From: an uncultured Anaerolinea sp.
Lineage (GTDB): Bacteria > Chloroflexota > Anaerolineae > Anaerolineales > UBA4823
Reading direction: 5' to 3'
NCBI GenBank assembly: GCA_964416275.1
Contig: CAYQDU010000001.1
Span: forward strand, 6,830-70,829
Length of the DNA: 64,000 bases
The notes under the pieces are model-generated. The model was not told the DNA's origin, made no database searches, and saw only the letters and a program-made list of their open reading frames with translations. The position numbers and the translations under genes are program-made. This document shows, one piece after another, positions 955-58,795 of the stretch. Every line of letters starts with the position of its first letter. Position 1 is the stretch's first letter.

Positions 955-2286
955 CTATTCCATATTCAACCGGAAGCCCACCCCCCGCACGGTCAGCAAA
1001 TAGCGCGGGGTCTCCGGGTTTGGCTCGATCTCCTGGCGAATGCGGTTCACCAGCCGGTCGAGGCGGCTGTCTTGCGAGTCGCCGGGGTCGCCATAGATCG
1101 CCAGCATAATCTCTTCCCGGCGGGCAACGCCGCCGGGGCGCTGGGCAAGATATTCCAACAGCTTGAATTCCAGGTTCGATAAGTCTTGGATCAGCCGGGC
1201 GCCCACCCGCACAGTGTGACGGGCCGGGTCTACATCCAGCGTTTGAGCAATTCTTTGGGCCGCCCAGCAGGCGTAGTGGGCCAGCAAGGGCGTAAACACC
1301 TCCTCGCGCCCGGCCTGGCTCTGCGCCAACCCTTTCAGGCGCAGCATGTCCAGAGCCGCCGGTGGGGCGGGCTCCTGTTTGGCGATGGCGATTAGCGCCA
1401 GCCATTCTTCGGTCGGCAACCCTTCTTGCAGCTTGCGGCACTCCTCGGCGATGCGGGCCTGGCGCGACAGCCACTTGAGGTCGTCCAGCCGTTCCGGGTG
1501 ATCGGCCTGTTCGGCCGCCGTGTCGAGCAGGGCCTGCAGCAGGCCGATATGCCCGCCGCACAGCGTCAGCATCCTGGCCCGCTGTGGGGGGGCAAACGAC
1601 AGGCGGCGGCGGGCCTCCAACTGCTGTAAGATCGCCTCCCGGTCGGCCGGGGTGTAGGGCGTTAGCCCGATCAGCGAGCGGGAAAACAGCTCGTAGAAGC
1701 TTTCGACTTCCAGCGGGTCGCGCAGCGCCTGGGGCGCGCTGCGCATGAACAGCACGTAGCTCAACCGGTTCTTATTGGCGTCGCGCACGGCCCGCAGATG
1801 GGCAAAGGTCTGTTTATCGAAGGTCTGATAGACGCTGTCGAACTCGTCCAGCAGGAAACACAGGCGGAAGCCTCTTTCCGAGCAAAGCTGCAAGGTGATC
1901 AGCTCGAAGAAGCGCAGGCCCATCAGGGCGTCGCGGCTGGAGATGACCTGGGCCTGCAGCCCGTTGATCTGCGGACGCAGCAGCCCGGCCTCGCTCTGCT
2001 GGCCGCAGGCTTCGGCCAGGGTCATCAGCAGCAGCTCGTACAGGCCCCATTGATTAGGCTCGTACATGCGGTTGCAGTCCACCTGCACGAACAGGGTCTG
2101 GGCGGCCTGCTCGCCTAGGTAATGCTGCTGCACGTCTGGGCGCAGCAGGTGGTTTTGCAGCCGGTTTTTGCCGATGCTGGCCGCGCCGATCACCGCGCAC
2201 GATTCGGCGCTCTGGATGCGGGCAAACAGCGGGGTCAGAATTTCTTTGCGAAAGTCAAGAGAGTGTTCGGGGCCGACTTCGTTCAT
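955..2286 (-). CDS. P-loop NTPase (AAA/STAND-like) fused to C-terminal OmpR/PhoB-type winged-helix DNA-binding domain
   Basis: 443-aa ORF. Walker A-like GAASIGKN and Walker B-like CFLLDEFD, then a helical region. C-terminal wHTH LEFKLLEYLAQRPGGVARREEIMLAIYG...LDRLVNRIRQEIE...YLLTVRGVGFRL. No receiver domain. Confidence 0.7.
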   Translation of the reverse strand: MNEVGPEHSLDFRKEILTPLFARIQSAESCAVIGAASIGKNRLQNHLLRPDVQQHYLGEQAAQTLFVQVDCNRMYEPNQWGLYELLLMTLAEACGQQSEAGLLRPQINGLQAQVISSRDALMGLRFFELITLQLCSERGFRLCFLLDEFDSVYQTFDKQTFAHLRAVRDANKNRLSYVLFMRSAPQALRDPLEVESFYELFSRSLIGLTPYTPADREAILQQLEARRRLSFAPPQRARMLTLCGGHIGLLQALLDTAAEQADHPERLDDLKWLSRQARIAEECRKLQEGLPTEEWLALIAIAKQEPAPPAALDMLRLKGLAQSQAGREEVFTPLLAHYACWAAQRIAQTLDVDPARHTVRVGARLIQDLSNLEFKLLEYLAQRPGGVARREEIMLAIYGDPGDSQDSRLDRLVNRIRQEIEPNPETPRYLLTVRGVGFRLNME

Positions 2287-2328
2287 GGTGGGTTTCCTTC
2301 TGCCTTCTGTTGTTTGGGGGCGGGCTGC

Positions 2329-4038
2329 TTAAGCCGCCGATTGGCCGGGTGAAGCCAGGACTGTTTTTGCCGGGGGCCATTCCGGCGGGGGCCAGGGTTG
2401 GCCCCAGTGATCCAGCCGGTGGCATAGGATGCTGGCTAACATCAACGCCCGCTGGCGGGAGGTCAATTTGTGAGGCGCGTGCAGAATCGATGCCCGGAAC
2501 AGGGTGTTGAACAGCAGCCCCAGCAGATACTGATAGGCGTCGCTAACGCCGGTCAGGCGTTGGGCCAGGTCGCGAATCGATGAGATCACCTGGATGGGCT
2601 TCAGCAGTTCAGGATCCGCCGCCGGCGCTTCGATGGGCTGGAGCTGCTCTGGGCTGGCGATCCACAGGCACAGGCGGTAGAACAGCCCGAAATCGTCGCC
2701 CATGTAAGTCAAGCGGTTGACAATATCCGATTCCAGCTCGACAAAATCCTGCAAGATTGGCCCGTCGCCGCTGCGCTCGAAATCGACCACCCAGGCGTCT
2801 TCGCGATCGTCGATCAGCAGGTTATCGCCGTGCAAATCGCCATGCGTGACGCCGAACAGCACCTGGCTCATGAAGGGTTGGGCTTGCTGCGGCGGTTCCT
2901 GGCCCAACCGCTCGACCAGCCAGGCCACCGGGTCTGGGGCCTGCAGGCTGCGCCACAGGTCGGCCTCCATCCCCTGCCCCGGCGGCGCGGTGGGCTGCAT
3001 TGACAGGACCTTCTGATACCAGCGATGCTCCCAGACTTTACAGTAGGCCTGAAAGACTGAATAGAAGCGTTCCACCTGGGTGGTGTGATACAGGCGCGAC
3101 CACACCCCGCCAAAAAACTTTTCCAGGCTGGCCTGGACTCTTTCTGTAGGAGCGTTCAGATAATGGTCGGTAAAGGTGGTGATGTTGTTGGTGCCTAAGT
3201 AGCTGTACACCGCGCCGCCCAGGTCCCACAGAGTGGCCTGGTTGATCAGGACGGGCAGATAATTCCCCACCAGTTGGCCGCGGATGTGGGCCTGGTAATT
3301 TTCGATCTCCTGGGTGATGCGCGCCGAGCGGGCCAGCTTTACCAAAACCGGCTGGCGCCCGTCTTCGTTTACTTTCAAGATGACCGAATTGGGGCGCGGA
3401 ACAGCCGAAAGCGTCACCGGCTGGATGGGGGTCTGGATTTCCGTGGGCGAGTTCAAGCCTTCGATTTCCAGCGCCTGGGCCTGCGGGAAGAGGCGGGCCA
3501 GCACGTCTTGCACTTCGTCGGCCTGGGCTTCCGGCACGTCGAACAGCAGTCGGCGCGATACCTGGGCCAACGTCTCTGGCGGGCCAATCTGGATGCCGCG
3601 CCAGGCGTAGCAGTATTTACAGGCCGCCGCTTCCAGGGCCTCTTTCAGGGCTTCCGGGCCGTCTTCCTTGCCCACAAAGCTGAAAGCGCCTTTTTCGCGG
3701 ATGCTGCGCGTGGCGGTTTTGTGATCGCCAAACCCGCTGACGATGATCGTCTCGGCTGGCTTCAAGCGCGGGGCCAGGTCCAGCCCGCGGAAGTCTTCGG
3801 TATCCTGATCGAAATGCAGGCGCATGTCTACCAGGGCCAACTGGCAGCGAAAGCGGCGCGCTTTCTGGAGGGCATCTTCGACCAGCGCATCGCCGAAGCC
3901 CTGGGCCTGGATGGCGGTGAAGCCCCACAGGCGCAGCAGATTCATGAAAATCTCGCTGTAGACCGGGTCGTTATCGACGACTAAGACCCGGGCCTGGTTT
4001 TTTGCCGCCGGGCGAACGGTGATTGGATCGTCTTTCAT
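2329..4038 (-). CDS. Response-regulator receiver fused to protein-kinase-like (aminoglycoside phosphotransferase fold) domain
   Basis: 569-aa ORF with SD AGGAGGG before ATG 4038. Receiver motifs VLVVDNDP, LALVDMRL, IVSGFG. C-terminal kinase-like catalytic loop HGDLHGDNLLID and WVVDFERSG. Confidence 0.7.
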   Translation of the reverse strand: MKDDPITVRPAAKNQARVLVVDNDPVYSEIFMNLLRLWGFTAIQAQGFGDALVEDALQKARRFRCQLALVDMRLHFDQDTEDFRGLDLAPRLKPAETIIVSGFGDHKTATRSIREKGAFSFVGKEDGPEALKEALEAAACKYCYAWRGIQIGPPETLAQVSRRLLFDVPEAQADEVQDVLARLFPQAQALEIEGLNSPTEIQTPIQPVTLSAVPRPNSVILKVNEDGRQPVLVKLARSARITQEIENYQAHIRGQLVGNYLPVLINQATLWDLGGAVYSYLGTNNITTFTDHYLNAPTERVQASLEKFFGGVWSRLYHTTQVERFYSVFQAYCKVWEHRWYQKVLSMQPTAPPGQGMEADLWRSLQAPDPVAWLVERLGQEPPQQAQPFMSQVLFGVTHGDLHGDNLLIDDREDAWVVDFERSGDGPILQDFVELESDIVNRLTYMGDDFGLFYRLCLWIASPEQLQPIEAPAADPELLKPIQVISSIRDLAQRLTGVSDAYQYLLGLLFNTLFRASILHAPHKLTSRQRALMLASILCHRLDHWGQPWPPPEWPPAKTVLASPGQSAA

Positions 4039-4071
4039 CAGCCCTCCTGTACTCGATTCCGGCGCCTGGCC

Positions 4072-7000
4072 TTACGGCGAAATAACCGGAAAAGCCGGGA
4101 CTTTCAAAATGGGCAGCCGGATGCAGAAAACTGCACCTGGCCAGCCGTCCTGTGGCGTGTAGCGCAGCGTGCCGTGCATATCCTCCACCAACTGGCGCGC
4201 CAGCAGCAGGCCCAACCCACCCCGCCGGTCTTTGTCGGTGCTGGGGATGGGGATCTGTAAGATAAAGGGCCGCACCTTTTGATCGACCCCCGGCCCGCTG
4301 TCTTTGAACTGAATTTCGACGTGGTTGTCTGGCAGGAGGTCGGTATGGATGATGAGCTGTCGGGTCTGGCTGTGCTTCATGGCGTGAATGGCGTTGTAGG
4401 TAAGCTGGCGCAGAACGCGCCGGAAGGTTACCGTGTTTGCCATGATCTGGGCGCCGGCGCAGCCCAGATCGAGGTGTAATTGCAGTTCTGGCCCTTGGGT
4501 CTGGGTCAGTTCTTGCATGGCCCGGCGGATAAATTCGTCTAACGGCAGGGGGGTGGGGTTGAGGTTCTGCCAGGGGGCGGCTTTCCGGAGGTATTCGGCG
4601 CTTTCTTCGATGTGATGGATATACTGCCGGGCGGCTTCTGGCTGATCCAGGCTCTCGCGCGCCAGGTAGGCCCAACTTCTGATTTTGCCCAGGTAGGGGT
4701 TGATGTCGTGGGCCAGGTCGGAGGCCCAGCCGGTCATCGCGGCTACGGTGGATTTGAAGCTCAACTGGCTGCTCTGGTGAGCGCGCTCGATTGCCAGGCT
4801 GATCTGATGGGCAATGCTTTTGACCAGCTCGATTTCATCCGAGTCGAAGCCCAGCGGCCGGGGACGCTCTAACACCAGCACGCCCAGGAGGCCCTGTTTG
4901 CTCATCAGGCTGACGCATAGTTCCGATTGAATACCGGGAATCACCTCCCAATAATTGGGATCGGCCTGTACGTCGGGAACGTACTGCGGTTCCAGGTCTT
5001 CGCCGTTCAGGGCCTGGCGGGCTGTGCGGCTGGCAATCGACTGTCCATCTACCCGGATGGCGCGCAATTGCTGGTTCTCCGGGTTTTGGATGGGGTAGAA
5101 CTTCATGGTGGTTGGCACGAACTCCAGCAGGTGGTCATCTGGGTTGTACAGCAGCACGCACAGGTAAGGGCGTTTGAACAGGTCGCTCACCTTTTCCAGA
5201 ACTTTTTCCAGCACATTCTCCAGGTTCAGCTCGGTGGCCACGGTTTCAACGATGGCGTTGGCCGCATCCAGCCGTTCTTTCTCTTTGCGCACGGTTTCCA
5301 GGCGGGTCGAATCGCGGATGCTGGCCCCTACCACCTCGGCCAGGATGGTGAAGATGGTGCGCTCTTCGGTGCTGAAGTAATGCGGCTGGCGATAGTTGAA
5401 AAACATAGCCCCCACGGTTTCATCGTCGGCGCGCAGTGGGAAGGCGGCCACCGAGCGGATGCCTTCGTCTTGGGTGAAGCGCCCGATCAGCTCGGGATGC
5501 TGGTTTATATCGTCGGCCCAGATCGGCTCTGGGCTATTCAGCACCGTCTGGACGGCGTTCCGCTCGCCTTTGGATGCGTCGTCCTCGGCCTGGGGCGGCA
5601 GGGGCGTGCGCAGCCCAAATGTATCGCCCAGCCGGACTTTCCCCGTTTCGGCGTCTCGATACCACAGGGTCATCGCCGACAGTTCTGGCGAGACGTTGCG
5701 AATCGAGTCGCGGGTTTCGCGGAAGGTAGCCTGCAGATCGGTTGGCTCGGTGACCACTTTGGCGGCGCGCAGCACGGCGTATAGATGCTCCTGGCGGCGG
5801 GCGTTGTCCAGGGCCAGGAACACTACGGGGGCAAAGCGCCCCAGGATGTTCAGCGTTTGCGGCGGAAGCTGGCCTTCCACAGCGCTGGCGGCCAGCACGC
5901 CGATCACCGAGCTGCCGATGGTGATGGGAACCCAGGCGCGCGTGCCGGTCTGGTTGCTGAAGGGTGTCTTGGTCTCAATCGTCCGCCGGACGCGCCGCCG
6001 GTTGGCGGGCGAAAGGTGCACCGCCTCCAGGGCGTTGTACGAATTCACCCCCAGGCATTCATAGGTTTCCAGGGGTTCCTGGGTCAGCGAGCTGGATTTC
6101 CAGCGCCGCAGAACCAGGGTCAGGCGCTGGGCCTGGCCCAGCGTGTCTTGGATATTGGTAATCAGGTTGGGAATAACCCGGGCTTCCCGATCGCTCGCCA
6201 GGGCCTGTTCCAACATGCGCCGGGTGGCCTCGTGTTCGCGCTGCTGAATTTCGCCGGCGTTCTGGCGCTCGCGCAGGGTGTGTCCATGGTTGAAGATGGC
6301 GATGGCGGCCAGGTTGGCAAACGACTCGGCCTGCTGCAAGTCGTCGTCTGAAAAATGGCGCGGGGCGCGATAGTCGATGTAGAACACCCCCAGCGATTCC
6401 TGGGTGTTGGGCGCACGGATCGGCGCACCCAACAGGGCTTTTACGTCTTCGCGAGCGACGAACGAAGATGCGGCCAACCCGCGCTGCCCGATGCCCAGGT
6501 TCGCCTGCTCGATATTGGCAATGACCAGCGGCCCGCTGCGCAGGACGTGGGCGGCGATCCCTTTCAACCGGGATTTCTCTTTGACGAATTCTTTGATGGG
6601 CTGGCGCAGCTCACCGGCATAGCTGATGTTGGATTTGTCGAATTCGTAGACGTTGCCGCCGGGTTTGCTGGGGTAGATGATGGTCAGGTCGGCCTCCATC
6701 ACCCGGCGAGCAGCTTCGCAGATGCGGGTAAGCGTCTTTGCCAGCGGCTGGCGGTTGGCTTCGCCCATGATCGCATAGTTAGCTTCCAACAGCGCTTCTT
6801 GCTTGCGGCGCTGGCGCAGGCTTTCCCACACCAGCCCCACGTTGTTGAGCAGGGTTTCCAGCCGGTCGAGCATCCTGCCTTGCAGCGGCTTGCCGTCGTG
6901 CCGGTTATCGATGATCACGATCCCCAGGGTCGCGCCGCCGGCCCGCACCGGCAGCACCGCCGATTCGGAGAAGGAGAACTTGCGATTGAAGGCGCTGGGC

Positions 7001-8850
7001 AGTTGGGTGGAGATTTCATCCTTCAACACGATCTGGCGCTGCCCGGTCTTCAATACCTGGCTGAAGGCGTTGTCTTTTTCAGCCGCCAGGTCGATGGTCA
7101 GTTCTTTGACCGCCTCGGCAAACGGGGTAAGGCGAACCGCGCCGGTTTGCAGTTCCAGCAGAAATGTCTCAAAGTCGTAGCCCCGTTGTTCGTCGATCTC
7201 CCAATCGCGGTGAGCATCTTGATACTGGTCGGCGCCCACGCCCAGCCGCCCTCGCAGGCAGCGGTTGTTATTCTCGGCCAGGAACAGCAAGGCCCGGTTG
7301 AAGCGCATGCCGAAATTGGCGGTGGCGATGGTCAGGACGGTCAGCCAGAAGTGGTCTTCGTTTTGATCGGCGATCTGCAGCAGTTCTACCCCGGCGCGCT
7401 GCAGCACCCGCATCCGCTCGGCGTCTTTTTTCTCGGCCTGGGCCAGGCGGTTGATCTGGATTGCCCCGGCCACCTGGTCGGCCACTTCTTTGAGCAGGCG
7501 TTCATCCCGGTCGGTAAAGGCTTTGGGCCGGGTGTAATCCTGCACGATGATCCCGCCGATGACCTGATCGCTGACCAGCAGCGGCACACCCAGCCAGGAT
7601 TGGGCCTGCCGGCCATACAGCCGGATGTTATGCCGCTCGCGGAATTCTTTGACTTCTTCGTGCAGGTGGATGGTCTGGCGTTGGCGCAGCAGGTAGCCGG
7701 TCAGCCCTTCGTCGATGGGCAGCCAGGTGCGCTCCTGGCGCTGTCCGTCTTCATAGTCCAGGCAGAAATCGATCTGCCGGGTTTCCTCGTCGGTCAGGGC
7801 CACGCTGAAATTGCTCACGTCGATCAGCGCTCGCGCCTGCTGGCGCACCTCTTCCAGCAGGGTTTCCAGGTTGTCCAGGGCGGCGCGGGTGTTGATGTGC
7901 TGGCCGATCCGGCCGATGACGGCTTTTTCGGCCCGCAGGCGCTGCTCATGCTCGAACAGGCTGGCGCGCTCCAGCACGACCGACACCTGGCGGGCAAACA
8001 CGTTCAACCAGCGCCGCTCGTGGTCGTGGATGTGGGTTTCGGTTTGGTCGTAGTCCAGAATCAGGCAGCCCAGCAGGGCGCTGCCGCTCCACAGCGGCAG
8101 GATGACCCATTCGCCGTCTGGTGATTGAAACCCCGGCAGGCCCAGCCAGTTGGGGTCTGGGCGCGGGCAGCGGCGAAAGAGGGCGTCGTGGGTCGCCAGA
8201 ATATCGGCCAGGGGCAGCCCGTAGGCCGAACGGAACAGGTAGTTCGCAAAGCCTTCGGGCGGGCGGTGGCCTTCGGAAATGACCCCCACCAGGCAGTCGG
8301 TTTCGTCTTTATCTTCACCCTGCGGCCGCCAGAGCAGGTGCGTCCGTTGGAAGCCAAATTGCAGGGTATAGACCATCACAATCCGGGCCACCTCGCGGAA
8401 GGTGGGGCGCTGCACCGCTACTTCCACCATCTGACTGTAGGCCCTCTGCCAGTTATATTCGCGCTGATCCTGGCGCTCGCGCTGGAGCGTTTGTAATAAA
8501 TACAGCAGTTCCTTCTGTTTGAAGGGCTTGGTCAGATAGCGCCAGGCTCCGGCCTCGTAAGCCTGCAGCCCGTCCTCGGCATCCTCGAAGCCGGTGAAGA
8601 TGATCGCGCTGGCTTCCGGGCAGGCCGCCAGCATTTCCTGCATCACCTGAATCCCGTTCTGCGCCGCCCCCAGGCGCTGATCGATTAGCAGAATGTCGTA
8701 GGCCTCGTGGCGCAGGGCGCTTTGCCGGACGGCGCTCGTCGCCCGCCCGATTTCTGTAAACGCGTTGACCTGATACCCGGCGCGCTTGAGATAACTCGCT
8801 ACCAACCGGGCCAGTTCATCGTCGTCATCCAGGATTAACACCCGGCACAT
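4072..8850 (-). CDS. Cytoplasmic hybrid sensor histidine kinase: N-terminal receiver, about seven GAF-like units, HisKA/HATPase core
   Basis: The track start 8886 overlaps the upstream gene. ATG 8850 has SD GGAGGGG (8854-8860) and gives MCRVLILDDDDE, so 8850 is preferred. Seven GAF-like strand motifs (e.g. WLGVPLLVSDQVIGGIIVQD, AVLPVRAGGATLGIVIIDN, ELCVSLMSKQGLLGVLVLER). H-box DLAHDINPYLGKI; N/G boxes LTYNAIHAM, KDSGPGV, GGLGLLLARQLVEDMHG. No TM segment seen. Confidence 0.85.
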   Translation of the reverse strand: MCRVLILDDDDELARLVASYLKRAGYQVNAFTEIGRATSAVRQSALRHEAYDILLIDQRLGAAQNGIQVMQEMLAACPEASAIIFTGFEDAEDGLQAYEAGAWRYLTKPFKQKELLYLLQTLQRERQDQREYNWQRAYSQMVEVAVQRPTFREVARIVMVYTLQFGFQRTHLLWRPQGEDKDETDCLVGVISEGHRPPEGFANYLFRSAYGLPLADILATHDALFRRCPRPDPNWLGLPGFQSPDGEWVILPLWSGSALLGCLILDYDQTETHIHDHERRWLNVFARQVSVVLERASLFEHEQRLRAEKAVIGRIGQHINTRAALDNLETLLEEVRQQARALIDVSNFSVALTDEETRQIDFCLDYEDGQRQERTWLPIDEGLTGYLLRQRQTIHLHEEVKEFRERHNIRLYGRQAQSWLGVPLLVSDQVIGGIIVQDYTRPKAFTDRDERLLKEVADQVAGAIQINRLAQAEKKDAERMRVLQRAGVELLQIADQNEDHFWLTVLTIATANFGMRFNRALLFLAENNNRCLRGRLGVGADQYQDAHRDWEIDEQRGYDFETFLLELQTGAVRLTPFAEAVKELTIDLAAEKDNAFSQVLKTGQRQIVLKDEISTQLPSAFNRKFSFSESAVLPVRAGGATLGIVIIDNRHDGKPLQGRMLDRLETLLNNVGLVWESLRQRRKQEALLEANYAIMGEANRQPLAKTLTRICEAARRVMEADLTIIYPSKPGGNVYEFDKSNISYAGELRQPIKEFVKEKSRLKGIAAHVLRSGPLVIANIEQANLGIGQRGLAASSFVAREDVKALLGAPIRAPNTQESLGVFYIDYRAPRHFSDDDLQQAESFANLAAIAIFNHGHTLRERQNAGEIQQREHEATRRMLEQALASDREARVIPNLITNIQDTLGQAQRLTLVLRRWKSSSLTQEPLETYECLGVNSYNALEAVHLSPANRRRVRRTIETKTPFSNQTGTRAWVPITIGSSVIGVLAASAVEGQLPPQTLNILGRFAPVVFLALDNARRQEHLYAVLRAAKVVTEPTDLQATFRETRDSIRNVSPELSAMTLWYRDAETGKVRLGDTFGLRTPLPPQAEDDASKGERNAVQTVLNSPEPIWADDINQHPELIGRFTQDEGIRSVAAFPLRADDETVGAMFFNYRQPHYFSTEERTIFTILAEVVGASIRDSTRLETVRKEKERLDAANAIVETVATELNLENVLEKVLEKVSDLFKRPYLCVLLYNPDDHLLEFVPTTMKFYPIQNPENQQLRAIRVDGQSIASRTARQALNGEDLEPQYVPDVQADPNYWEVIPGIQSELCVSLMSKQGLLGVLVLERPRPLGFDSDEIELVKSIAHQISLAIERAHQSSQLSFKSTVAAMTGWASDLAHDINPYLGKIRSWAYLARESLDQPEAARQYIHHIEESAEYLRKAAPWQNLNPTPLPLDEFIRRAMQELTQTQGPELQLHLDLGCAGAQIMANTVTFRRVLRQLTYNAIHAMKHSQTRQLIIHTDLLPDNHVEIQFKDSGPGVDQKVRPFILQIPIPSTDKDRRGGLGLLLARQLVEDMHGTLRYTPQDGWPGAVFCIRLPILKVPAFPVISP

Positions 8851-8863
8851 GCTCCCCTCCTGG

Positions 8864-11080
8864 TTACAGCAGATAGGGCAGGTCAATCGCGAAGGTTGTT
8901 CCGCCCAACACGCAGCTATCGACGATATAAATTTTCCCCCCCAGCGATTCGATCAGGCTGCGTGAGATATACAGGCCGATCCCGCTGCCATCCGGGCGGG
9001 TGGTGTACCCGGCTTCAAACACCGTTTCCCACAGGCGATAGTGAATTCCCGGCCCATTATCTTCGATGCAGATGCGCAGCGTAGCATTTTTATCCGATCC
9101 GCCGGAGGTTTCCATCGAAATCTTCACCCAGCCGCCGCGCTGCGGGCGCCACTCATTGATCTGTTGGATGGCGTTGAGCAGCAGGTTGAGCAGGATTTGC
9201 TCCAGGGCGGCCGCCTGGGTGCGGACAATCGCCATTTTAGACGGCGAGATAAACTGGATGACCACGTGATTATCGTCGCTCTGCTTCTTGAGCAGGTGAA
9301 CCACTTCCTGAATGATCTCGTCGATGCGCAGCATTTCGGTCTTGCTTTTGACGATAATGCGGGCAAAAGCGCGCATCGACTGGATGATCGTATCAACGTG
9401 GTTCTGGACTTCTTGCAGCCCGGCGCGGGCCAGGCTGACCTGCCCGGCCTGGGCCTGGCCGGCCGGCTGGCCGGCCAGCGCCGCGTTTAAACAATCTTCT
9501 ACGTTTTCGATCTGGATAGTGAGCCGCCCGGCGATGTTGTTGGTTTCATGCACCATGGCGCTGCTGACGTGGCCCAATAGCGCGCTGCGCTGGATGCTGG
9601 TGGCCTGTTCTTGAAAGGCGGCCCGCTCCAGAATGGAGGCAATCGCCAGGCAGGTAGCCGCTACATAGGTGTTCGCCTCCGGCGAGATGCGCTTCGGGCG
9701 GCTGTCCAGGGCTGCCAGGGCGTAGTTGCGCTTGAAATGCCCCTGGACTGGCGCTGCAATACAGGCTTCCAGGGGGTAGTATTCCAGTAGATAGCGGAAG
9801 CGGTCGTGCTGTTCGCGCGGCAGCCGCTCGATGGAAATCGTCTCGCCGTCTTCGGCCACATCTCGCACCGGGCTGTAGATCAACCCGGCCAGGGCTTCTT
9901 TGCGGGCCAGCCCATCGCCCGATTTCTGCACCATCTCAATCGAACGCTGCCCTGGGTCGAGGGCAAACAGCATAACCGCCTCGAAGCCGATGGCTTCATG
10001 GCATTGGTTCAGCAGGGCCTGGATGGCGCGTTGGGCCGGCAGGCGCGAGACATCGAGCAGCGAGAAGTCTTTGCCCAGGGCCGGCGGTAGTTCGGCCCGG
10101 TCGGCTGTCGCCGGCGGCCTTTGCAGCAGCACATCCAGCAGGTCCTCCGGCAGCAGCGGGCGGATCAGCAGGCTGACCCCGGCGGCCTGCAGGCTCTCCA
10201 GGGCCTGCATGTGTTCGTTTGCGCTGGCCCAATCCGTCATCAAGATGACGCGCACATCCGCGCCGGCTTCCAGAATGCGCCGGACTACCTCCAGCCCGTT
10301 CATGTCGGGCAGTCCCAGGTCGATAAAAACAATGTCGGCCGGGTCGTTTCGCAGCAGCTCCAGCCCCTGGCGGCCCGAATCGGCGCTGTCTACCCGCTGG
10401 CCGACGTGTCTCAGCCAGGCCGTCACCACGCCCGATTGGTCGTGGTTGTCGTCGATAACCAGGATGTGCTTCTTGGGGTGGTTTTCCAATAAAAACCTGT
10501 CCAGCGGCGAGCGGCGGCGCGCCCCACCCCCGCCAGGCGGCGGCTGCACCTCGCCGCCTGCCCGCTCTGGCCCGCTGCGCTGCGCCAACCCCAGGCTGAT
10601 CCGCCGCCGGATGGGGTCGATCTCGCGGATTACCACACGCACCCGGTCGCCCGGCCAGAACAGGTCGAGCGGGTCTTTCTGCCTGGGCACCCACTCTGGC
10701 AGATTGCTGCGATGCAGCAGCCCGGTCAGCCCTGAATTCAGCTCGACAAAAGCCCCGTAAGCCAGCACACCGCTGATGGCGCCTTCGACTTCCTGGCCCT
10801 TATAGGCCAGCTCATGAATCCGTTCCCAGGGGTCGTCTTGGGTCAGCCGCAGGCTGAGGTCGATATGCCCGCCGGTCTCGTGCTGATCCAGCGCTACGGC
10901 CAGGCCGCTCCAGTTGAGCGGGTACAGGCTGCGCCAGTTGCTGCGCTCGTGGGCGTCCCACGAGATTTCTCGCACCCGCACGATCCCGCTGCGCCCGTCT
11001 TCCAGTTCCATCAACAGGCCCAGCGGCAGGTGGCGGATCACTTTGCAGCGCAGACTTTTGCGTTTCTTCGAGCCATCCAT
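8864..11080 (-). CDS. S1-S1-receiver-GAF-histidine kinase fusion
   Basis: 738-aa ORF. Two S1 RNA-binding folds (KVIRHLPLGLLMELEDGRSGIVRVREISWD...IDLSLR; GQEVEGAISGVLAYGAFVELNSGLTGLLHRSNL...GDRVRVVIREIDPIRRRISLGL). Receiver (ILVIDDNHD...IVFIDLGLPDMNG) and a GAF-like region. H-box MVHETNNIAGRL; HATPase boxes LLNLLLNAIQQ, EDNGPGI, GSGIGLYISRSLIESLGG. Confidence 0.85.
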   Translation of the reverse strand: MDGSKKRKSLRCKVIRHLPLGLLMELEDGRSGIVRVREISWDAHERSNWRSLYPLNWSGLAVALDQHETGGHIDLSLRLTQDDPWERIHELAYKGQEVEGAISGVLAYGAFVELNSGLTGLLHRSNLPEWVPRQKDPLDLFWPGDRVRVVIREIDPIRRRISLGLAQRSGPERAGGEVQPPPGGGGARRRSPLDRFLLENHPKKHILVIDDNHDQSGVVTAWLRHVGQRVDSADSGRQGLELLRNDPADIVFIDLGLPDMNGLEVVRRILEAGADVRVILMTDWASANEHMQALESLQAAGVSLLIRPLLPEDLLDVLLQRPPATADRAELPPALGKDFSLLDVSRLPAQRAIQALLNQCHEAIGFEAVMLFALDPGQRSIEMVQKSGDGLARKEALAGLIYSPVRDVAEDGETISIERLPREQHDRFRYLLEYYPLEACIAAPVQGHFKRNYALAALDSRPKRISPEANTYVAATCLAIASILERAAFQEQATSIQRSALLGHVSSAMVHETNNIAGRLTIQIENVEDCLNAALAGQPAGQAQAGQVSLARAGLQEVQNHVDTIIQSMRAFARIIVKSKTEMLRIDEIIQEVVHLLKKQSDDNHVVIQFISPSKMAIVRTQAAALEQILLNLLLNAIQQINEWRPQRGGWVKISMETSGGSDKNATLRICIEDNGPGIHYRLWETVFEAGYTTRPDGSGIGLYISRSLIESLGGKIYIVDSCVLGGTTFAIDLPYLL

Positions 11081-11086
11081 AGGCGG

Positions 11087-12235
11087 TCAGGCCGGCGTTT
11101 CCGGTTCTTCGAAAGTAACCCCTGGCAGCCCCTGTTCGGGCGGATAGGGCAGGCGGAACACGGCCTGGGCTTCGCCCAGGTCGGCCATATCTTGCAGGCG
11201 CTCGAAGTTGGGGGCCAGGGCGGGGTTGGGCAGCCGTTCCAGCCAGTAGATCTGCGGCTCCCATAGGCGGCTGTCGTTGCGGGTGGTTGGACGCTTGATC
11301 TGGTAGCCCCACATCATGGCGTCGGGCCTGGCCGAGCGGGTCAGAGCCGAGCCAACCGCCCGGCTGACGAAATCGGGGACGAAAGTGGGCGAGGCCAGCC
11401 GCACCTGCACGAAATAGGGCCGGGTCAGCCCGGCCAGGCGGCGGTCTAGCTGAGTAGCCGTCTTGAAGGCAAACGGCTGGGCAAAGTGCAGGTCGTTGTT
11501 CTTGCTGATCCGGCTGGCTTGCTCGCTCAGGCGGGTGAGCAGCAGCCGTTCGTACTGCTGCAAGACGGTGGGGCGCAGCAGCAGGTCGAGCAGCACCGGC
11601 TCGGGGCTGCCCGCCAGGGCGCGCCAGATTTGTTCGTCCGAACGGTCGATGGTCTCCCAGGCTTCGGACAGGTAGAGCATCTCCTGGCCGCTGTTGAAGG
11701 CGCTGTTGAAGCGGCAGATTTGGGCCAGGCCGTCGGCCGCGCTCACCTGGCGCAGAATGTCCCACCCGGCCAGGCGGTGGAATTCGTCTTGCGTGGCGGC
11801 CGGGCGCAGGATGTAGTCGATGGGGAAAATCGAGCGCAGCTCGTACCAGAAGGCGCAGGCCGCCTGGCGGGCAACCTCCTGGGTTGGGGCGCACACCTTC
11901 GCGAACAGGCTTAACAGCAGGCCGGGCTGTCCTGGGGAATGTACAACGCGCAGCGCCAGGCTGCGTTTTTCGGGCCACTCATCCTGGGCGGTGCAGTCGT
12001 TGATGTGCAGGGCTTCGATGAACAGGCGCTGCCGGTCGCGGGCCTCATCCCACAAAAAAGCAGGGCTGAAGCCCCATTTGAACTTGAGTAAATCCTGAAA
12101 AGGCCGGATGAACACCTGGCAGGCGATCACCGCCTGCCACAGGTAGGCGAACGTGCGGTCTAACGGGGCTTTGCTTTCCAGGTCGGGCAGGGTGTTGCTT
12201 TCGCCCAGCTCGACCCAGGGTAATGTTTCGGCCAT
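11087..12235 (-). CDS. Hypothetical protein (orphan, 382 aa)
   Basis: SD GGGAGG before ATG 12235, and the stop is 6 nt from the next gene. Balanced coding-like composition, no TM, no motif I can assign. The competing same-strand ORF 10812-11978 is Arg/Pro/Gly shadow. Confidence 0.6.
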   Translation of the reverse strand: MAETLPWVELGESNTLPDLESKAPLDRTFAYLWQAVIACQVFIRPFQDLLKFKWGFSPAFLWDEARDRQRLFIEALHINDCTAQDEWPEKRSLALRVVHSPGQPGLLLSLFAKVCAPTQEVARQAACAFWYELRSIFPIDYILRPAATQDEFHRLAGWDILRQVSAADGLAQICRFNSAFNSGQEMLYLSEAWETIDRSDEQIWRALAGSPEPVLLDLLLRPTVLQQYERLLLTRLSEQASRISKNNDLHFAQPFAFKTATQLDRRLAGLTRPYFVQVRLASPTFVPDFVSRAVGSALTRSARPDAMMWGYQIKRPTTRNDSRLWEPQIYWLERLPNPALAPNFERLQDMADLGEAQAVFRLPYPPEQGLPGVTFEEPETPA

Positions 12236-12259
12236 TGGAGCCTCCCTGCCAGCCTGGGC

Positions 12260-13345
12260 TTACTTTTTGGACGGCGGCGGCATCAGTTGGTTCAGGCTGG
12301 CGCTGAGCAGCGTTAGCGGGGTCGAACTGGCCGCCGAAGAATCGGACATCGAGCGCGTGATGCTGTCGATAACCCGCGCCTCATCGCCGTTGAGCATAAA
12401 GCCTTTCGCCGCCAGGCCCTGCAGCATGGTTTCCAGCGCCTTGGCCCGCGCCTGGATGCTTGCCATGGCTTCCTCGTGCTGGTGATCGGGCAGCTTGCGC
12501 AGCCGTTCGATTTCGGCCTGCAGCACATCCATCTGATAGTGCAGTTCCGCCCGCTGGACGGCGAACTCGTCGCGCAGCTTCGCCAGCTCGGCTTCTTGCT
12601 CGGCCTGTATTTTGTTGGCTTCGCCCTGGCGGCGCAGGAGCTGCTCGCGCTGATCGACCAGTTCTTTCTCTTGCTGAAGCTTGTCTTTCTCGGCGCTGGT
12701 CTTCTTTTCCTGCACCTGGCGGGCCTGTTGGATTTCGAGCAGGGCCGGGTCGCCCTGGCGGCTGGTTACCTGAACGTCGAGGATGGCAAACCCCCGGCAG
12801 GCCTGGATCTGGCCGATCTCATGCGTGACATAGCGCTGGATGACGGCGTCGTCAACCCGCAGGCGGTCCTGGCCCTGGGCCAGCTCATCGTGTTTATGGG
12901 ATTGGATAAAGCTCTTGAGAATGGTGGTGGCGGAGGCCAGCAGCACGTTGATCGGCTGGTCGATGCTCATCACAGCCAGCGGGTCCTTGACCTGCCAGTT
13001 CAGGTTGATTGCCAGCCCGACCTGCGGTCCATCCGCCGAGCGGGCTGTGACCACCGGCAGACTGGTCAGATGTTTGCGTTGATCGACGTAGTGGAGGCTG
13101 TAGACGCCGGCGGGCAGGTCTGCATACCCGCCGCGCTCGATCAGGATGCGCTGCCCGTGGGGTGCCGTCAGCACAGCGGCGCAGTCCGGGTAGACATAGA
13201 GATAGTCGGCGCCAAACTTTCCGGTGGTGAAGCTGGTGGGCGGGGTAATGATCTGATTCCCAAACTGAGGCGGAACGCCCCGTTTGCGGCTGCCCTGATA
13301 TTCTACCCAGCTACGCAGCAAACGTTTCCAAAGATCATCAGACAT
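12260..13345 (-). CDS. SPFH/Band-7-like protein with long C-terminal coiled coil, no membrane anchor
   Basis: 361-aa ORF with SD AAGGAGG before ATG 13345. SPFH-like core (VVTARSADGPQVGLAINLNWQVKDP...ILKSFIQSH). It is followed by E/Q/K/L/R heptad-rich sequence (KDKLQQEKELVDQREQLLRRQGEANKIQAEQEAELAKLRDEF...). No N-terminal hydrophobic segment. Confidence 0.65.
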   Translation of the reverse strand: MSDDLWKRLLRSWVEYQGSRKRGVPPQFGNQIITPPTSFTTGKFGADYLYVYPDCAAVLTAPHGQRILIERGGYADLPAGVYSLHYVDQRKHLTSLPVVTARSADGPQVGLAINLNWQVKDPLAVMSIDQPINVLLASATTILKSFIQSHKHDELAQGQDRLRVDDAVIQRYVTHEIGQIQACRGFAILDVQVTSRQGDPALLEIQQARQVQEKKTSAEKDKLQQEKELVDQREQLLRRQGEANKIQAEQEAELAKLRDEFAVQRAELHYQMDVLQAEIERLRKLPDHQHEEAMASIQARAKALETMLQGLAAKGFMLNGDEARVIDSITRSMSDSSAASSTPLTLLSASLNQLMPPPSKK

Positions 13346-13512
13346 CTGGCCCTCCTTACTTTTTGGCTACATCTGTGATACCTGCTGGATTGGTTTGACC
13401 GGGAGTGAAGGTACTGTTTCTATAATAGCATAAAAATAGGGCCGAAGTTTTACATTTCCCCGCCATTTTCCATACATAACATAAGGGCTCTTCTCGGCGG
13501 AAGCCCCATATT

Positions 13513-13560
13513 CATTGAGGGATGTTGTGGGGCGCTGCAGCCCCATAACATCCCTCAATG
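13513..13560 (-). terminator. 21-bp-arm hairpin 4 nt after the stop of the 195-aa gene (terminator-like, no U tract)
   Basis: CATTGAGGGATGTTGTGGGGC-gctgca-GCCCCATAACATCCCTCAATG with one G-U position. It sits between the giant-membrane-protein pair and the AT-rich leader of the SPFH cluster. Confidence 0.35.
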
Positions 13561-13564
13561 AAAC

Positions 13565-14152
13565 TTAGCGGTATGCACCTTCGATCAATATCTGGCCCTG
13601 GCCCAACTCAACCCGCTCAATCGACACTGGCAGGGCCTGGGCCTGGGCCAGTTGAGCCTGGAATTCTTGCTGGACGGCCTGCAGAATGAAATCGGGGGCG
13701 GCCGCCCCGCCGACGGTGATGGATTGTAGATCGACCAGGGGCCGGCCGTCTCCCGCTCCTACCCAGGCTCGCCCGGAGACCGGCGTGCGCAGCCCCAGGA
13801 TGTAGGCGACGCCGCCGGCGGTCACCCCCTGGGGGTCGATGGCGATGCGCGGGTGGCTGAACGGCACATTGGGGTGGCGGGCCAGGAACCAGGCCACCGC
13901 CTCGGAGGCCATCTGGTCGGTGACGACGATCTCGAAGCGCTGCCCGCTGGCCTGGCCGGAGAATAGCTTCTCGCGGATGGCGGCAATCTGCGGGTCGAGG
14001 CGCGGCTCGACCGCCGCCTGGAGAGTGAGCGGGGCCAGGCCCAGCCAGGCCAGCCCGTTTGCCAGCAGCAGGGCCAGGGCAAACCACAGGCTGGCCCGAT
14101 GTGGGCCAGCCCGCGCCGGGCCAGCCCGGCGGCGGACGTGGGCGGCGCTCAT
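13565..14152 (-). CDS. Membrane-anchored hypothetical protein (195 aa), translationally coupled partner of the giant membrane protein
   Basis: ATG 14152 overlaps the TGA of the upstream gene (ATGA). Arg-rich N-terminus, then one TM (LWFALALLLANGLAWLGLAPL), with the rest predicted outside the membrane. No family assignable; the resemblance to LmeA/DUF2993-type proteins is weak and unverified. Confidence 0.6.
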   Translation of the reverse strand: MSAAHVRRRAGPARAGPHRASLWFALALLLANGLAWLGLAPLTLQAAVEPRLDPQIAAIREKLFSGQASGQRFEIVVTDQMASEAVAWFLARHPNVPFSHPRIAIDPQGVTAGGVAYILGLRTPVSGRAWVGAGDGRPLVDLQSITVGGAAAPDFILQAVQQEFQAQLAQAQALPVSIERVELGQGQILIEGAYR

Positions 14153-17100
14153 TCCCAGGCCTCCAGGCGGGCGCGCAGCTCTTCCGACAGGCCCTTGAGC
14201 GCTTCCAGGCGGCGTTCGATCAGCACCGCCAGCCCCACCAGGATCAGCCCGGCCACGGCAAACACAATCCAGCGGTTGGCCGATAGAAGCGGCTCAATCA
14301 ATTGGGCCGTCACGTCGAGGGTCAGCCCGGCTACCCCGGCGTACAGGAAGCGCCGCAGGCGGCGGGCGCTGCCCCACCAGGCCAGCAGCAGGCACTCGAC
14401 CCCCATCCACAGGGCGTAGCGCCCGCCATTGGCCCCCCGCGCTTGCCAGAAAGACGCGCCGAGCAGCAAAATCACCGCCGCCCAATCCACCCAACGGGCC
14501 AGATCGCGGCTGCCCAGGCGGCGTTCCAGATAGCCCAATGCCAGCAGATAGACCCCCGCCGGCGCGGCGTAAATTTGCGCCTCGCGCTGGCCCCAGGCCA
14601 GGAGCAGCTCCAGGCTCCAGGCGACCAGCAGCAGGGCCACCGAGGCGTAGCCCAGGCGCAGCCGCCGGTCGGCTGTGGCCGAAGCCAGGAGGAACAGCCC
14701 GGTCACGGCCAGCAGGCTCACCAGGCGCTGCACGTTGGGCAGGTCGGCCGGCTGCACCAGACGCGTCCCCAGGGCGACGCGGATCGCCAGCCCTGGCACA
14801 TCGACGTACAGGGCCAGCCCGCCCGCCAGCCCCGCCAGGGTTGCCAGCCAGCCGGCATGCACCAGGGGCCGTTCCCATAAGGCCCGGCGCGGGTCCATCG
14901 CGCCCCGCGCCGGGCTGCGCCGCGCCAGCCGCAGGCCATACCCGGCCAGGCCGTAGCCCAGGGCCAGCAGAGCCAGGTTGGGCGGCAGATCGGCCAGGGG
15001 CGCGCCCAGGGTGAACAGGCGTTGGAGCAGGGCCAGCCCGCCCAGGGCGGGGGGCAGGTAGGCCAGCCAGGGCAGCCGCCATAGGCTGGCAAATCCGCCG
15101 ATCAACAGGCCGTTCGACAGGCTGAGAGCCGCGCTGGACGGCCCCAGGCGCAGGCTGACGGCCTGCGTGATGAGCAGGTCGGCCAGGACGAGCAGGTGCA
15201 GCGGGCGCGACCAGCCGGAGAAGCGGGCTTCGCCCCGGCGGCGCTCGCCGGCTAGCCCGGCCAGGGCTGTCAGCCAGGTTGCGGGGGCAAAGGCCAGGGC
15301 CAGCCAGTCGCCGGGCGGGCGGCCGGCGTGCAGGCCCCACCACCGCAGCCCGGCCAGCAGCGCCAGTTGAGCCGCCGCCCCGGCCACCAGCAGCCAGGCC
15401 GGTTTGCGGAAGTATGCCGTCGCCAATCCATAGGCCAGGGCTGCCAGGGCCAGGGTCAGCGGCAGCCGGTCGGGGTAGGATAGGGCCAGCAGGGCGCTCC
15501 CGGCGGCCAGCAGATAGGCCAGCCCGAACAGCGGCAGCGCCCACCAGCGCAGGATGACCTGCCAGGGGGGCAGCGCCGAGCCGTCGTCCAGGGTCGCTTT
15601 TCCGTTCGTCCACTCCAGCAGGTGCGCCAGCCCCAACAGGGCCGCAATCATCGGCCACAGCCCCAGGCCGTAATCGACCGGCTGCATCCCCCGGTCGAGC
15701 AGCCAGCTCCAATAGGGCGGCAGGGCCAGCCCGCCGGCGGCGGTCAGCAGCAGCGGCCAGCGCCGCCAGGCGGCCAGCAGAGCGCACAGCAGGGCGGCGG
15801 CGCTGTAGCCCACCTGCACCGCCCGGCGGTCGAAGCTGGTGAAGGGCAGCCCGGCGTAGATCAGCAGGAAGATCGGGATCAACAGCGCCCGCCCGGCCTG
15901 GGCGGCGAAGGGGGGCGCGGCGGCTGCCTGCGCCGGTCGCCGGTCGAGCAGGAAGCCGAAGATCAGGTACAGCCCGGCCACGCCCAGCAGCCCCCAACCG
16001 TATTGCTCGCGCGGGGCCAGGCGCTCGGCCAGGGTGAGCATCACGGCCAGCGGCAGAGTAACGGCCGCCAGGTAGACCCAGGCGGTCTGCCGGAACCACA
16101 CCGCCGACAGGCCCAATACCAGCCCGGCGAACAGCAGCCCCGCCGCCAGGGCCGCCGGCTGCGAGAGCAGGCCCAGCAGGCCAAACCCCAGGGCGGCATA
16201 GGCCAGGGTGTAGAACGGGCGGGCGAAGCGTGCGCCGGTCGGCAGGCTGCGCCGCTCGATCCAGCGCCCCAGCCCCAGGCCGGGCAGGACGAACAGCAGC
16301 CAGATCAGCCCGGCCAGCGTGGGCGGGGCGGCCGGGAAGGCTATAGCAAGGCGGGCCAGCGCCCACAGCGGCGGCGCAAACACAGCCGGATATAGGAAAC
16401 GGGCCGAGCGCAGCCCGCCGCGCAGGTCGATCACCAGGGCCGAAAGATAGAACACCAGCATCAGCCCAAAGCCCTGGCTGGCCCAGGCGGCCCGGGCCTG
16501 TGCCAGCAGCAGGCCTACCAGGATCAGGCTATGGGCCACGGCCTGCGGCGGCCGGCCGAGAAGCCTGGCCGGGCCTTTCAGGCCCAGGCTCATTCCTCCA
16601 CCGATCCATAGCAGCAGCACGGCCAGCATCGCCCAGGCAACCCCATAGCCCACAGCTTCCAGCCGCCCGGCCCGCCAGAGCTGCAGGGCCATCAGCGACC
16701 AGGGGGCTACCGCCAGGCCGGAGGCCAGCCAGGCCAGGCGCAGGGCGGTTTTGGGCTGGCGGCGGTAGAGATAGACGCCCAGGGCAAACAGGCCGCACAG
16801 CGTCCCCAGGGCGGCCGCCGACCAGCGCTCGCGCAGCGGCCCGCCGCCCAGAATCGCCAGGTTGCGGATCAGAGACAGGAACAGGGTCAGCGCAGCGGCC
16901 AGCCAGGCCCCGGTCTGCAGGGGGCGGCGGAACACCCGCCAGGCCGGGCCGCCGCTGGGGCGGCGGGGGGTGCGGGCGTAGGCATACAGGGCGCGCTCGC
17001 CCAACAGGAAGGCGGCCGCCAGCAGAGCGGCCAGAAAGGCCGAACGCCCGCTGCCCCGGCTGAAATGAGCCGCCGCCAGCCCGGCTGAAAACAGGGCCAG

Positions 17101-22605: not shown

Positions 22606-22607
22606 GC

Positions 22608-58720: not shown

Positions 58721-58795
<75 letters not shown>

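Follow-up and report, generated by a model that had tools for sequence, protein, structure and literature searches.

Can a two-component histidine kinase take RNA as its input? The question is raised by a single gene in a stretch of 64,000 nucleotides from an uncultured Anaerolinea sp. of the Chloroflexota (NCBI GenBank assembly GCA_964416275.1, contig CAYQDU010000001.1, positions 6,830 to 70,829 of the forward strand), to which we refer as the window. The gene, here called S1-HK, encodes a histidine kinase with a pair of S1 domains in front of a receiver (REC). Known inputs of histidine kinases comprise small molecules, light, membrane state and partner proteins. An S1 pair is an unusual front end for a histidine kinase; a first, sequence-only reading of this DNA had proposed that the kinase may be gated by RNA binding, which would be an unusual sensory logic. 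Based on the analysis presented here, we tentatively prefer the reading in which the pathway of this kinase takes RNA bound by the S1 pair as an input, and we weigh it below against its alternatives. What is new here is an uncharacterised, well-conserved family of S1-fronted two-component kinases, encoded in an undescribed conserved cassette.

The S1-HK gene model of 738 aa was reproduced by independent gene calls in other assemblies of the same organism. Residue counts and column conservation were taken from a family alignment of 59 members, and on this alignment we have built a full-length AlphaFold2 model with a mean predicted local distance difference test (pLDDT) score of 83.5; a second model, of the N-terminal part alone, scored 89.7. 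The gene, an open reading frame (ORF), and the domains of its product are the following:

8864-11080, minus strand: S1-S1-REC-GAF-histidine kinase gene, S1-HK (ORF of 738 aa plus stop codon).
10853-11056, minus strand: S1a, a divergent S1/OB fold, residues 9-76 (AlphaFold2, Foldseek, S1a profile, Pfam in deep relatives).
10583-10801, minus strand: S1b, a canonical S1 domain, residues 94-166 (Pfam S1, bS1 profile match, residue conservation).
10472-10582, minus strand: Gly/Pro/Arg-rich disordered linker, residues 167-203 (pLDDT, column conservation).
10121-10471, minus strand: REC domain, residues 204-320 (Pfam Response_reg, residue counts).
9683-10045, minus strand: GAF-like domain, residues 346-466 (Pfam GAF below its cut-off, alpha/beta pattern in the model).
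9341-9682, minus strand: DHp helical hairpin, residues 467-580 (model helices, alignment to FixL, ZraS and HK853).
8867-9340, minus strand: CA (ATP-binding) domain with N, G1, F and G2 boxes, residues 581-738 (Pfam HATPase_c).

The protein thus reads S1a, S1b, disordered linker, REC, a second disordered linker, GAF-like domain, DHp (with H511) and CA. Its domains score 0.53-0.67 in column conservation, well above both linkers. The S1-REC linker scores 0.26, with residues 172-188 below a pLDDT of 50, and the REC-GAF linker scores 0.22, also with a pLDDT below 50. No transmembrane segment was found by Kyte-Doolittle hydropathy (19-residue window, maximum mean 1.34), in agreement with the sequence-only reading, and S1-HK is a soluble protein.

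The RNA-binding potential of the front end lies most clearly in S1b. This unit matched Pfam S1 (PF00575) over residues 94-164 with 51.9 bits against a cut-off of 22 (E 1e-13), gave 46.8 bits when its segment was searched alone, and matched the profile of the ribosomal protein bS1 with an E value of 1.9e-60. In the AlphaFold2 model its strands (97-106, 109-115, 118-123, 146-155 and 160-165) make up a five-stranded OB barrel. The equivalents of PNPase residues F19, F22, H34, D64 and R68 are Y108 (Tyr in 50 members and Phe in 7), F111 (59/59), H123 (53/59), D155 (38/59) and R159 (Arg in 54, Lys in 5). Since these canonical contact residues are found family-wide, RNA binding by S1b would be a reasonable expectation.

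For S1a, the simple sequence tests failed, and structure and profile methods were therefore needed to recognise its homology. Residues 1-94 of the window copy gave zero Pfam matches even at E<=10, and the similarity of S1a to S1b by BLAST was not significant (E 1.4). Among relatives, 19 of 30 family members had only sub-threshold Pfam S1 matches in this region. Hence, the two clear S1 folds of the sequence-only reading, with PF00575 expected twice, were recovered by Pfam for S1b but not for S1a in the window copy; two S1 stretches were matched in the deepest-branching relatives L064, L066 and L070. The fold of S1a was nonetheless supported by other means. In the AlphaFold2 model the beta1-beta2-beta3-helix-beta4-beta5 topology occurs twice, at residues 9-76 and 97-165, with a pLDDT of ~90. 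Foldseek aligned tandem bS1 domains over 159-171 columns that covered both S1 units, among them 7a05 domains D3-D4 (E 9e-14) and 9guv_B (TMq 0.73, root mean square deviation 3.1), and the NCBIfam rpsA models and one Rrp5 chain also extended across S1a and S1b. A family profile of S1a only, searched exhaustively against 1.84 billion representatives, recovered ordinary multi-S1 proteins (3-13 matched stretches, E 1e-15 to 1e-47). By these profiles and models, S1a is a true S1 homologue that has diverged in the S1-HK clade. It has an invariant set of its own, R35, R37, E38 and W49, together with W41 and W57, suggestive of a remodelled Arg/Trp surface. Its column conservation of 0.58 is on par with that of the catalytic domains, and S1a is therefore under selection.

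The remodelling of S1a bears on one alternative, in which the S1 pair would be a protein-protein module that no longer binds RNA and whose partner would be, for example, the receiver, an SPFH protein encoded nearby or a 382-aa protein. S1a has lost both aromatic contacts and the histidine contact, and the gene of the 382-aa protein lies just 6 nt upstream of S1-HK. There is also a precedent for S1 folds that bind protein, in bS1 domains 1-2. The conservation of all five RNA-contact positions in S1b, with F111 invariant, would however be hard to explain without nucleic-acid binding, and in many lineages both S1 units are present while the 382-aa partner was not detected. We consider this alternative quite improbable.

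The remainder of S1-HK corresponds to a receiver and a kinase. REC matched Pfam Response_reg (PF00072) over residues 206-316 with 68.8 bits against a cut-off of 30.2 (E 5.6e-19), and it has the acidic pair D210/D211, the phospho-acceptor D254 (58/59) and T282 (57/59). At residue 307 (10160-10162, minus strand) an arginine replaces the lysine of the K-P motif, which is Lys in 57 of the 59 members; R307 is limited to the window copy and P0001, its closest relative (87% identity). The equivalent change in CheY, K109R, impairs activation, and by analogy the receiver of the window lineage may signal differently. Next to REC, the GAF-like domain of the window copy scored 18.4 bits with Pfam GAF (PF01590) over residues 350-460, under the cut-off of 22.4. 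Relatives did reach the cut-off (GAF_2, PF13185, with 32 bits in L064, GAF with 25.9-28.2 bits in L079 and L081), and the alpha/beta secondary structure in the model is compatible with a GAF domain. The motif YSPVRDVAED (residues 402-411; 9848-9877, minus strand), in which S403, P404, R406, D407 and E410 are each present in 59/59 members, suggests a conserved ligand pocket or docking surface. In the AlphaFold2 model the last helix of the domain runs unbroken into DHp helix 1.

The DHp helices were placed at residues 467-535 and 542-577. The H-box comprises the invariant H511 (9548-9550) and E512 followed by N514 and N515, in the motif H-E-T-N-N; an H-E-x-x-N pattern of the HisKA type goes along with phosphatase competence. 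HATPase_c (PF02518) matched the CA domain over residues 623-736 (E 2.7e-18), with N632 and N636 (N box), D674, G676 and G678 (G1 box), F688 (F box) and G698, G700 and G702 (G2 box) invariant or nearly so. DHp and CA together aligned end-to-end, over ~250 residues, with FixL, ZraS, NtrB and HK853. Pfam HisKA (PF00512) gave no match in the window protein and reached 16.7-17.2 bits only in L066 and L080. By motifs and alignment, the core is that of a complete HisKA-class kinase, and in our reading S1-HK is a soluble, dimeric and probably bifunctional (kinase/phosphatase) enzyme of this class. The succession of REC, GAF-like region and complete kinase core noted in the sequence-only reading was thus confirmed, with Response_reg above its threshold, HATPase_c matched, the H-, N, G1, F and G2 boxes present and GAF remaining sub-threshold.

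We have then investigated how widespread this architecture is, scanning each GTDB species, represented by one genome, with two peptide patterns specific to the family. The scan returned 79 loci among the species representatives, nearly all in Chloroflexota, with carriers in Anaerolineales, Caldilineaceae, Ardenticatenaceae, Thermoflexales, Chloroflexaceae and Candidatus Viridilinea. A few odd bins, assigned to Nitrospirae, Phaeodactylibacter and Planctomycetaceae, may be binning errors or true outliers. The best 120 database matches measured 699-797 aa, covered 95-100% of the query at 36-87% identity and all combined S1, REC and HATPase. The family carries automatic names only, namely "response regulator", "S1 RNA-binding domain-containing protein" and [quoted passage not shown]. 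The architecture is therefore not a one-off, but common and old within one phylum. As to whether it might be both common and already described, which the sequence-only reading had raised against its own proposal, relatives number in the hundreds among Chloroflexota sequences, whereas no functional description was found in the literature searched. Full-text searches combining S1 with histidine kinase or two-component terms retrieved no paper on this architecture and no described kinase with an RNA-binding sensor module.

The most informative context for S1-HK is a conserved gene cassette, which was absent from the sequence-only reading. In the window, S1-HK belongs to a tightly packed cluster of six genes on the same strand, running from an SPFH gene to an ATPase-winged-helix gene (955-13345, minus strand). 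The other members, in the order of the cluster, are:

12260-13345, minus strand: SPFH/Band-7 protein with a coiled-coil tail, the first gene of the cluster (Pfam Band_7, E 1.3e-7).
11087-12235, minus strand: 382-aa protein with no assigned function, 6 nt upstream of S1-HK (ORF, conserved homologues).
4072-8850, minus strand: partner kinase REC-5xGAF-HK, 1592 aa from the ATG at 8850 (Pfam, gene call).
2329-4038, minus strand: REC-APH/TCAD9 kinase-like protein with the motifs HGDLHGDN and VVDFE (Pfam TCAD9, E 2.5e-24; APH; REC).
955-2286, minus strand: P-loop ATPase with an OmpR-type winged helix and no REC (Pfam Trans_reg_C, E 2.9e-17).

The gap of 13 nt between the S1-HK stop and the partner kinase holds an AGGAGG Shine-Dalgarno sequence. 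The conservation of the cassette was counted in species representatives with enough flanking sequence, partners being detected by BLAST. A REC-GAFn-HK gene lies immediately downstream of S1-HK on the same strand in 64 of 65 loci; the REC-TCAD9 gene was found nearby in 50/52 loci and the ATPase-winged-helix gene in 42/52. This tight, same-strand arrangement is kept down to ~27% identity of S1-HK. The sole clear exception among the 65 loci is an orphan orthologue in Anaerolineales (L026 9965-12163, 41% identity) with no cassette partners nearby. The 382-aa gene (42/69 loci) and the SPFH gene (39/64) were detected only where the kinase is at least ~38% identical to that of the window, mostly in Anaerolineales, in which no more than a few tens of nt separate the 382-aa gene from S1-HK downstream. 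Neither of the two was detected by BLAST in loci of the Caldilineaceae/Chloroflexaceae type, where divergent copies may be missed.

These data bear on the possibility that the S1 pair is a localisation tag, which would hold S1-HK and the other cassette proteins at ribosomes, at mRNA or at a complex that degrades RNA and leave catalytic rates unchanged. A flexible tether would be more natural for a tag than for an allosteric sensor, the S1 pair is structurally closest to bS1 domains as observed on the 30S subunit, and in Anaerolineales the cluster also includes the gene of an SPFH protein, which is of a scaffold type. Ribosome-binding determinants were, however, not identified, and the loci of the Caldilineaceae/Chloroflexaceae type keep the S1 pair although the SPFH and 382-aa genes were not detected there. 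We regard a pure tag as unlikely.

As a whole, the cassette encodes two kinase cores and three receivers but no REC-containing DNA binder, and no Hpt domain was found by Pfam in any of its proteins. The partner kinase shares the REC-GAF-HK plan of S1-HK without the S1 pair, so that the latter looks like an added module. A recent duplication of the two kinases was considered and rejected, as direct comparison gave only distant similarity in REC and CA. The ATPase-winged-helix protein contains a Walker A (GAASIGKN) and a Walker B motif (LLDEFD) within ~350 residues that have no Pfam match, and its PDB and NCBIfam matches are confined to the C-terminal DNA-binding domain; its motifs point to a family of ATPase-driven, possibly STAND-like, transcription factors conserved with the cassette. 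The 382-aa protein had no match in Pfam, NCBIfam or PADLOC. Its 33 homologues are all hypothetical proteins, and those with a source name come from Chloroflexota. A known defence system was also rejected as an identity for the cassette, whose proteins gave only weak PADLOC matches over receiver regions.

Variant loci showed how the S1 pair is combined with other domains. Two assemblies contain a complete gene for a 345-aa S1-S1-REC protein (L088 784-1907, from TARA, and L089, another marine assembly), whose stop overlaps (ATGA) the next ORF, which resembles the start of the GAF region. In sequence, this split looks like a natural break at the REC-GAF linker. Locus L080 encodes an S1-HisKA-HATPase protein with no REC detectable by Pfam, its HisKA score being weak. 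In P0183 (L086 1-3521, a single 3.5-kb contig of Logan DRR659520), S1a-S1b is followed, within one protein, by the N-terminal part of a TCAD9-like domain; a caspase-like Peptidase_C14 gene follows with a 4-nt overlap, and a homologue of the ATPase-winged-helix gene lies on the opposite strand. The latter locus hints at a conflict or cell-death flavour, and its caspase-like neighbour leaves room for a role in immunity or cell fate at this single variant locus. A further candidate, P0160 (S1a plus the C-terminal half of TCAD9, on one 3.9-kb Logan contig with cassette-like neighbours), was set aside because it looks like the result of a deletion or a misassembly by which gene 1 became joined to gene 3.

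The split genes bear on a further alternative, in which the S1 pair is an output. RNA binding by an S1-S1-REC unit would be switched by phosphorylation of D254, through its own or a neighbouring kinase, and would exert post-transcriptional control with a logic like that of ANTAR regulators. The adjacency of the S1 pair and REC, the stand-alone S1-S1-REC gene with its ATGA-overlapping GAF-HK-like ORF in two assemblies, the "response regulator" label of several database entries and the family-wide integrity of the receiver residues are all compatible with it. In response regulators the output domain normally follows REC, but the S1 pair of S1-HK precedes it, across a disordered linker; moreover, the N-terminal REC precedes the enzymatic part in both partner proteins, and S1 occurs with kinase-type domains and no detectable REC in L080 and P0183. 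We consider an output role rather unlikely.

The preferred reading, RNA as an input to the pathway, accommodates these observations as follows. Kinases carry their sensor modules at the extreme N-terminus, and this is where the S1 pair stands in S1-HK. In L080 and P0183 an S1 unit or pair stands ahead of kinase-type domains with no REC detectable, which argues against S1 as a mere output under the control of REC. The partner kinase, whose plan is that of S1-HK minus S1, points the same way. In the proposed mechanism, the GAF-like domain would drive the kinase core directly, with the receiver N-terminal to it, and the tandem S1 module, presumably derived from bS1 repeats, would be tethered at the front by the flexible linker. 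S1b would act as the canonical binder of single-stranded RNA, as predicted from its contact residues. Because the tether is flexible, helical torque would not be the route of transmission; rather, RNA on the S1 pair would recruit or cluster the kinase or, alternatively, undo an inhibitory contact between S1 pair and receiver. By either route, phosphate would flow differently among S1-HK, REC-GAFn-HK and the REC-APH/TCAD9 kinase, with the APH-like kinase and the ATPase-winged-helix regulator as the output. That RNA is bound, that it affects kinase activity and in which order phosphate is transferred are all steps that we infer.

Several observations weigh against RNA as the input. It is the GAF-like domain, and not S1, that leads straight into the DHp helix, and with its invariant pocket-like motif this domain is the more orthodox sensor. 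As the S1-REC and REC-GAF linkers are disordered and variable, there is no obvious allosteric path from S1. The split S1-S1-REC gene fits equally well with S1 as the effector of a response-regulator-like unit. Finally, S1a has L20, L23 and R35 at the canonical aromatic/His positions and lacks the D/R pair before beta5; its surface may instead serve to bind protein, as bS1 domains 1-2 do.

S1-HK was also compared with known systems. The S1 pair superposes on domains D3-D4 of the bS1 repeats (domains 3-5); S1b and the "SLRLxxxDPW" inter-repeat junction align, and S1b has the same RNA-contact residues. S1-HK differs in having two repeats, the first of them remodelled, fused to a signalling enzyme, and it scores far below the cut-off in all rpsA NCBIfam models, so that it is not a ribosomal protein. 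With cytoplasmic kinases of the NtrB/FixL/ZraS/AtoS type it shares the ~250 residues of DHp and CA, the H-E-x-x-N motif, the N, G1, F and G2 boxes and a GAF-like domain feeding DHp, but S1-HK adds the N-terminal REC and S1 pair and is silent in Pfam HisKA. No equivalog was found among named kinases, all NCBIfam scores being far below their cut-offs. Unlike a classical hybrid histidine kinase, S1-HK has its REC N-terminal to GAF-DHp-CA, and its cassette has no Hpt.

In logic, the closest analogue of S1-HK is PKR, the model of tethered RNA binders gating a kinase, in which two RNA-binding domains are followed, behind a flexible tether, by a self-phosphorylating kinase (PMC3509664). This is an analogy and not homology: PKR has double-stranded RNA-binding domains rather than S1 domains and a eukaryotic protein kinase rather than a GHKL one, and it responds to double-stranded RNA where single-stranded RNA would be expected for S1-HK. 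The ANTAR regulators EutV, AmiR and PdtaR are likewise two-component proteins that contact RNA (PMC3369931), but they do so through a helical output at the C-terminus, whereas S1-HK, itself a kinase, has its S1 pair at the N-terminus; Pfam gave no ANTAR match in S1-HK. As for the third cassette gene, active APH-like kinases are rare effectors of VMAP-ternary conflict systems of multicellular bacteria, Chloroflexi included (Kaur et al. 2020, PMC7159879). The gene product is of the TCAD9/APH type with intact catalytic motifs, the link being through the domain family only, as the term TCAD9 is not used in that paper, which mentions APH-like kinases generically. In contrast to these systems, the cassette has no vWA-MoxR-VMAP core by Pfam and no meaningful PADLOC match. 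A stronger version of the preferred reading would make the family the first RNA-sensing histidine kinase, in which single-stranded RNA on the S1 pair (untranslated, foreign or a specific transcript) acts as the switch of a relay of two kinases and three receivers, with an APH-like kinase and a STAND-like ATPase-transcription factor at its end. It would be a bacterial counterpart of PKR logic, confined to filamentous Chloroflexota. We regard this version as possible but doubtful.

Upstream of the cluster, the window contains one further feature of interest:

13511-13562, minus strand: hairpin with 23-nt arms and a 6-nt loop, 96% complementary (inverted repeat, unique in the window).

This hairpin lies directly after a 195-aa ORF and ahead of the SPFH gene, in a gap of 219 nt with a folding z of -3.55, and it has no U-tract. 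It may serve as a terminator, as a stabiliser or in regulation, and it is probably the transcription-unit boundary of the S1-HK cluster. A search of the whole window against Rfam gave a single match, a tRNA gene (58721-58795, minus strand), and no known RNA element tied to the cluster. Further upstream, an ORF of 1936 aa (14149-19959, minus strand) has no Pfam match and encodes a huge polytopic membrane protein rich in Ala, Leu, Gly, Arg and Trp; it has an N-terminal zinc ribbon (CPGC...CPTC) and a 4-nt overlap with the start of the 195-aa ORF, and its composition is probably responsible for much of the rise in GC content to 72-74% at 14-24 kb. Beyond it, a transglutaminase-like protein (823 aa) adjoins a DUF58 protein (439 aa) at 20134-23927 (minus strand), a pairing typical of MoxR-type operons.

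Should the S1 pair be a tag or an output only, S1-HK would be an interesting but incremental variant of architecture. The cassette itself is an undescribed pathway, with two REC-first kinases, a receiver-controlled APH-like kinase and an ATPase-winged-helix regulator, and its parts are all soluble, which makes reconstitution in vitro possible. Were phosphotransfer coupled to RNA through the S1 pair, RNA would be a new class of signal for two-component systems. To our knowledge, almost none of the signalling of Chloroflexota has been studied experimentally, and such a coupling would provide a handle on regulation in this phylum.

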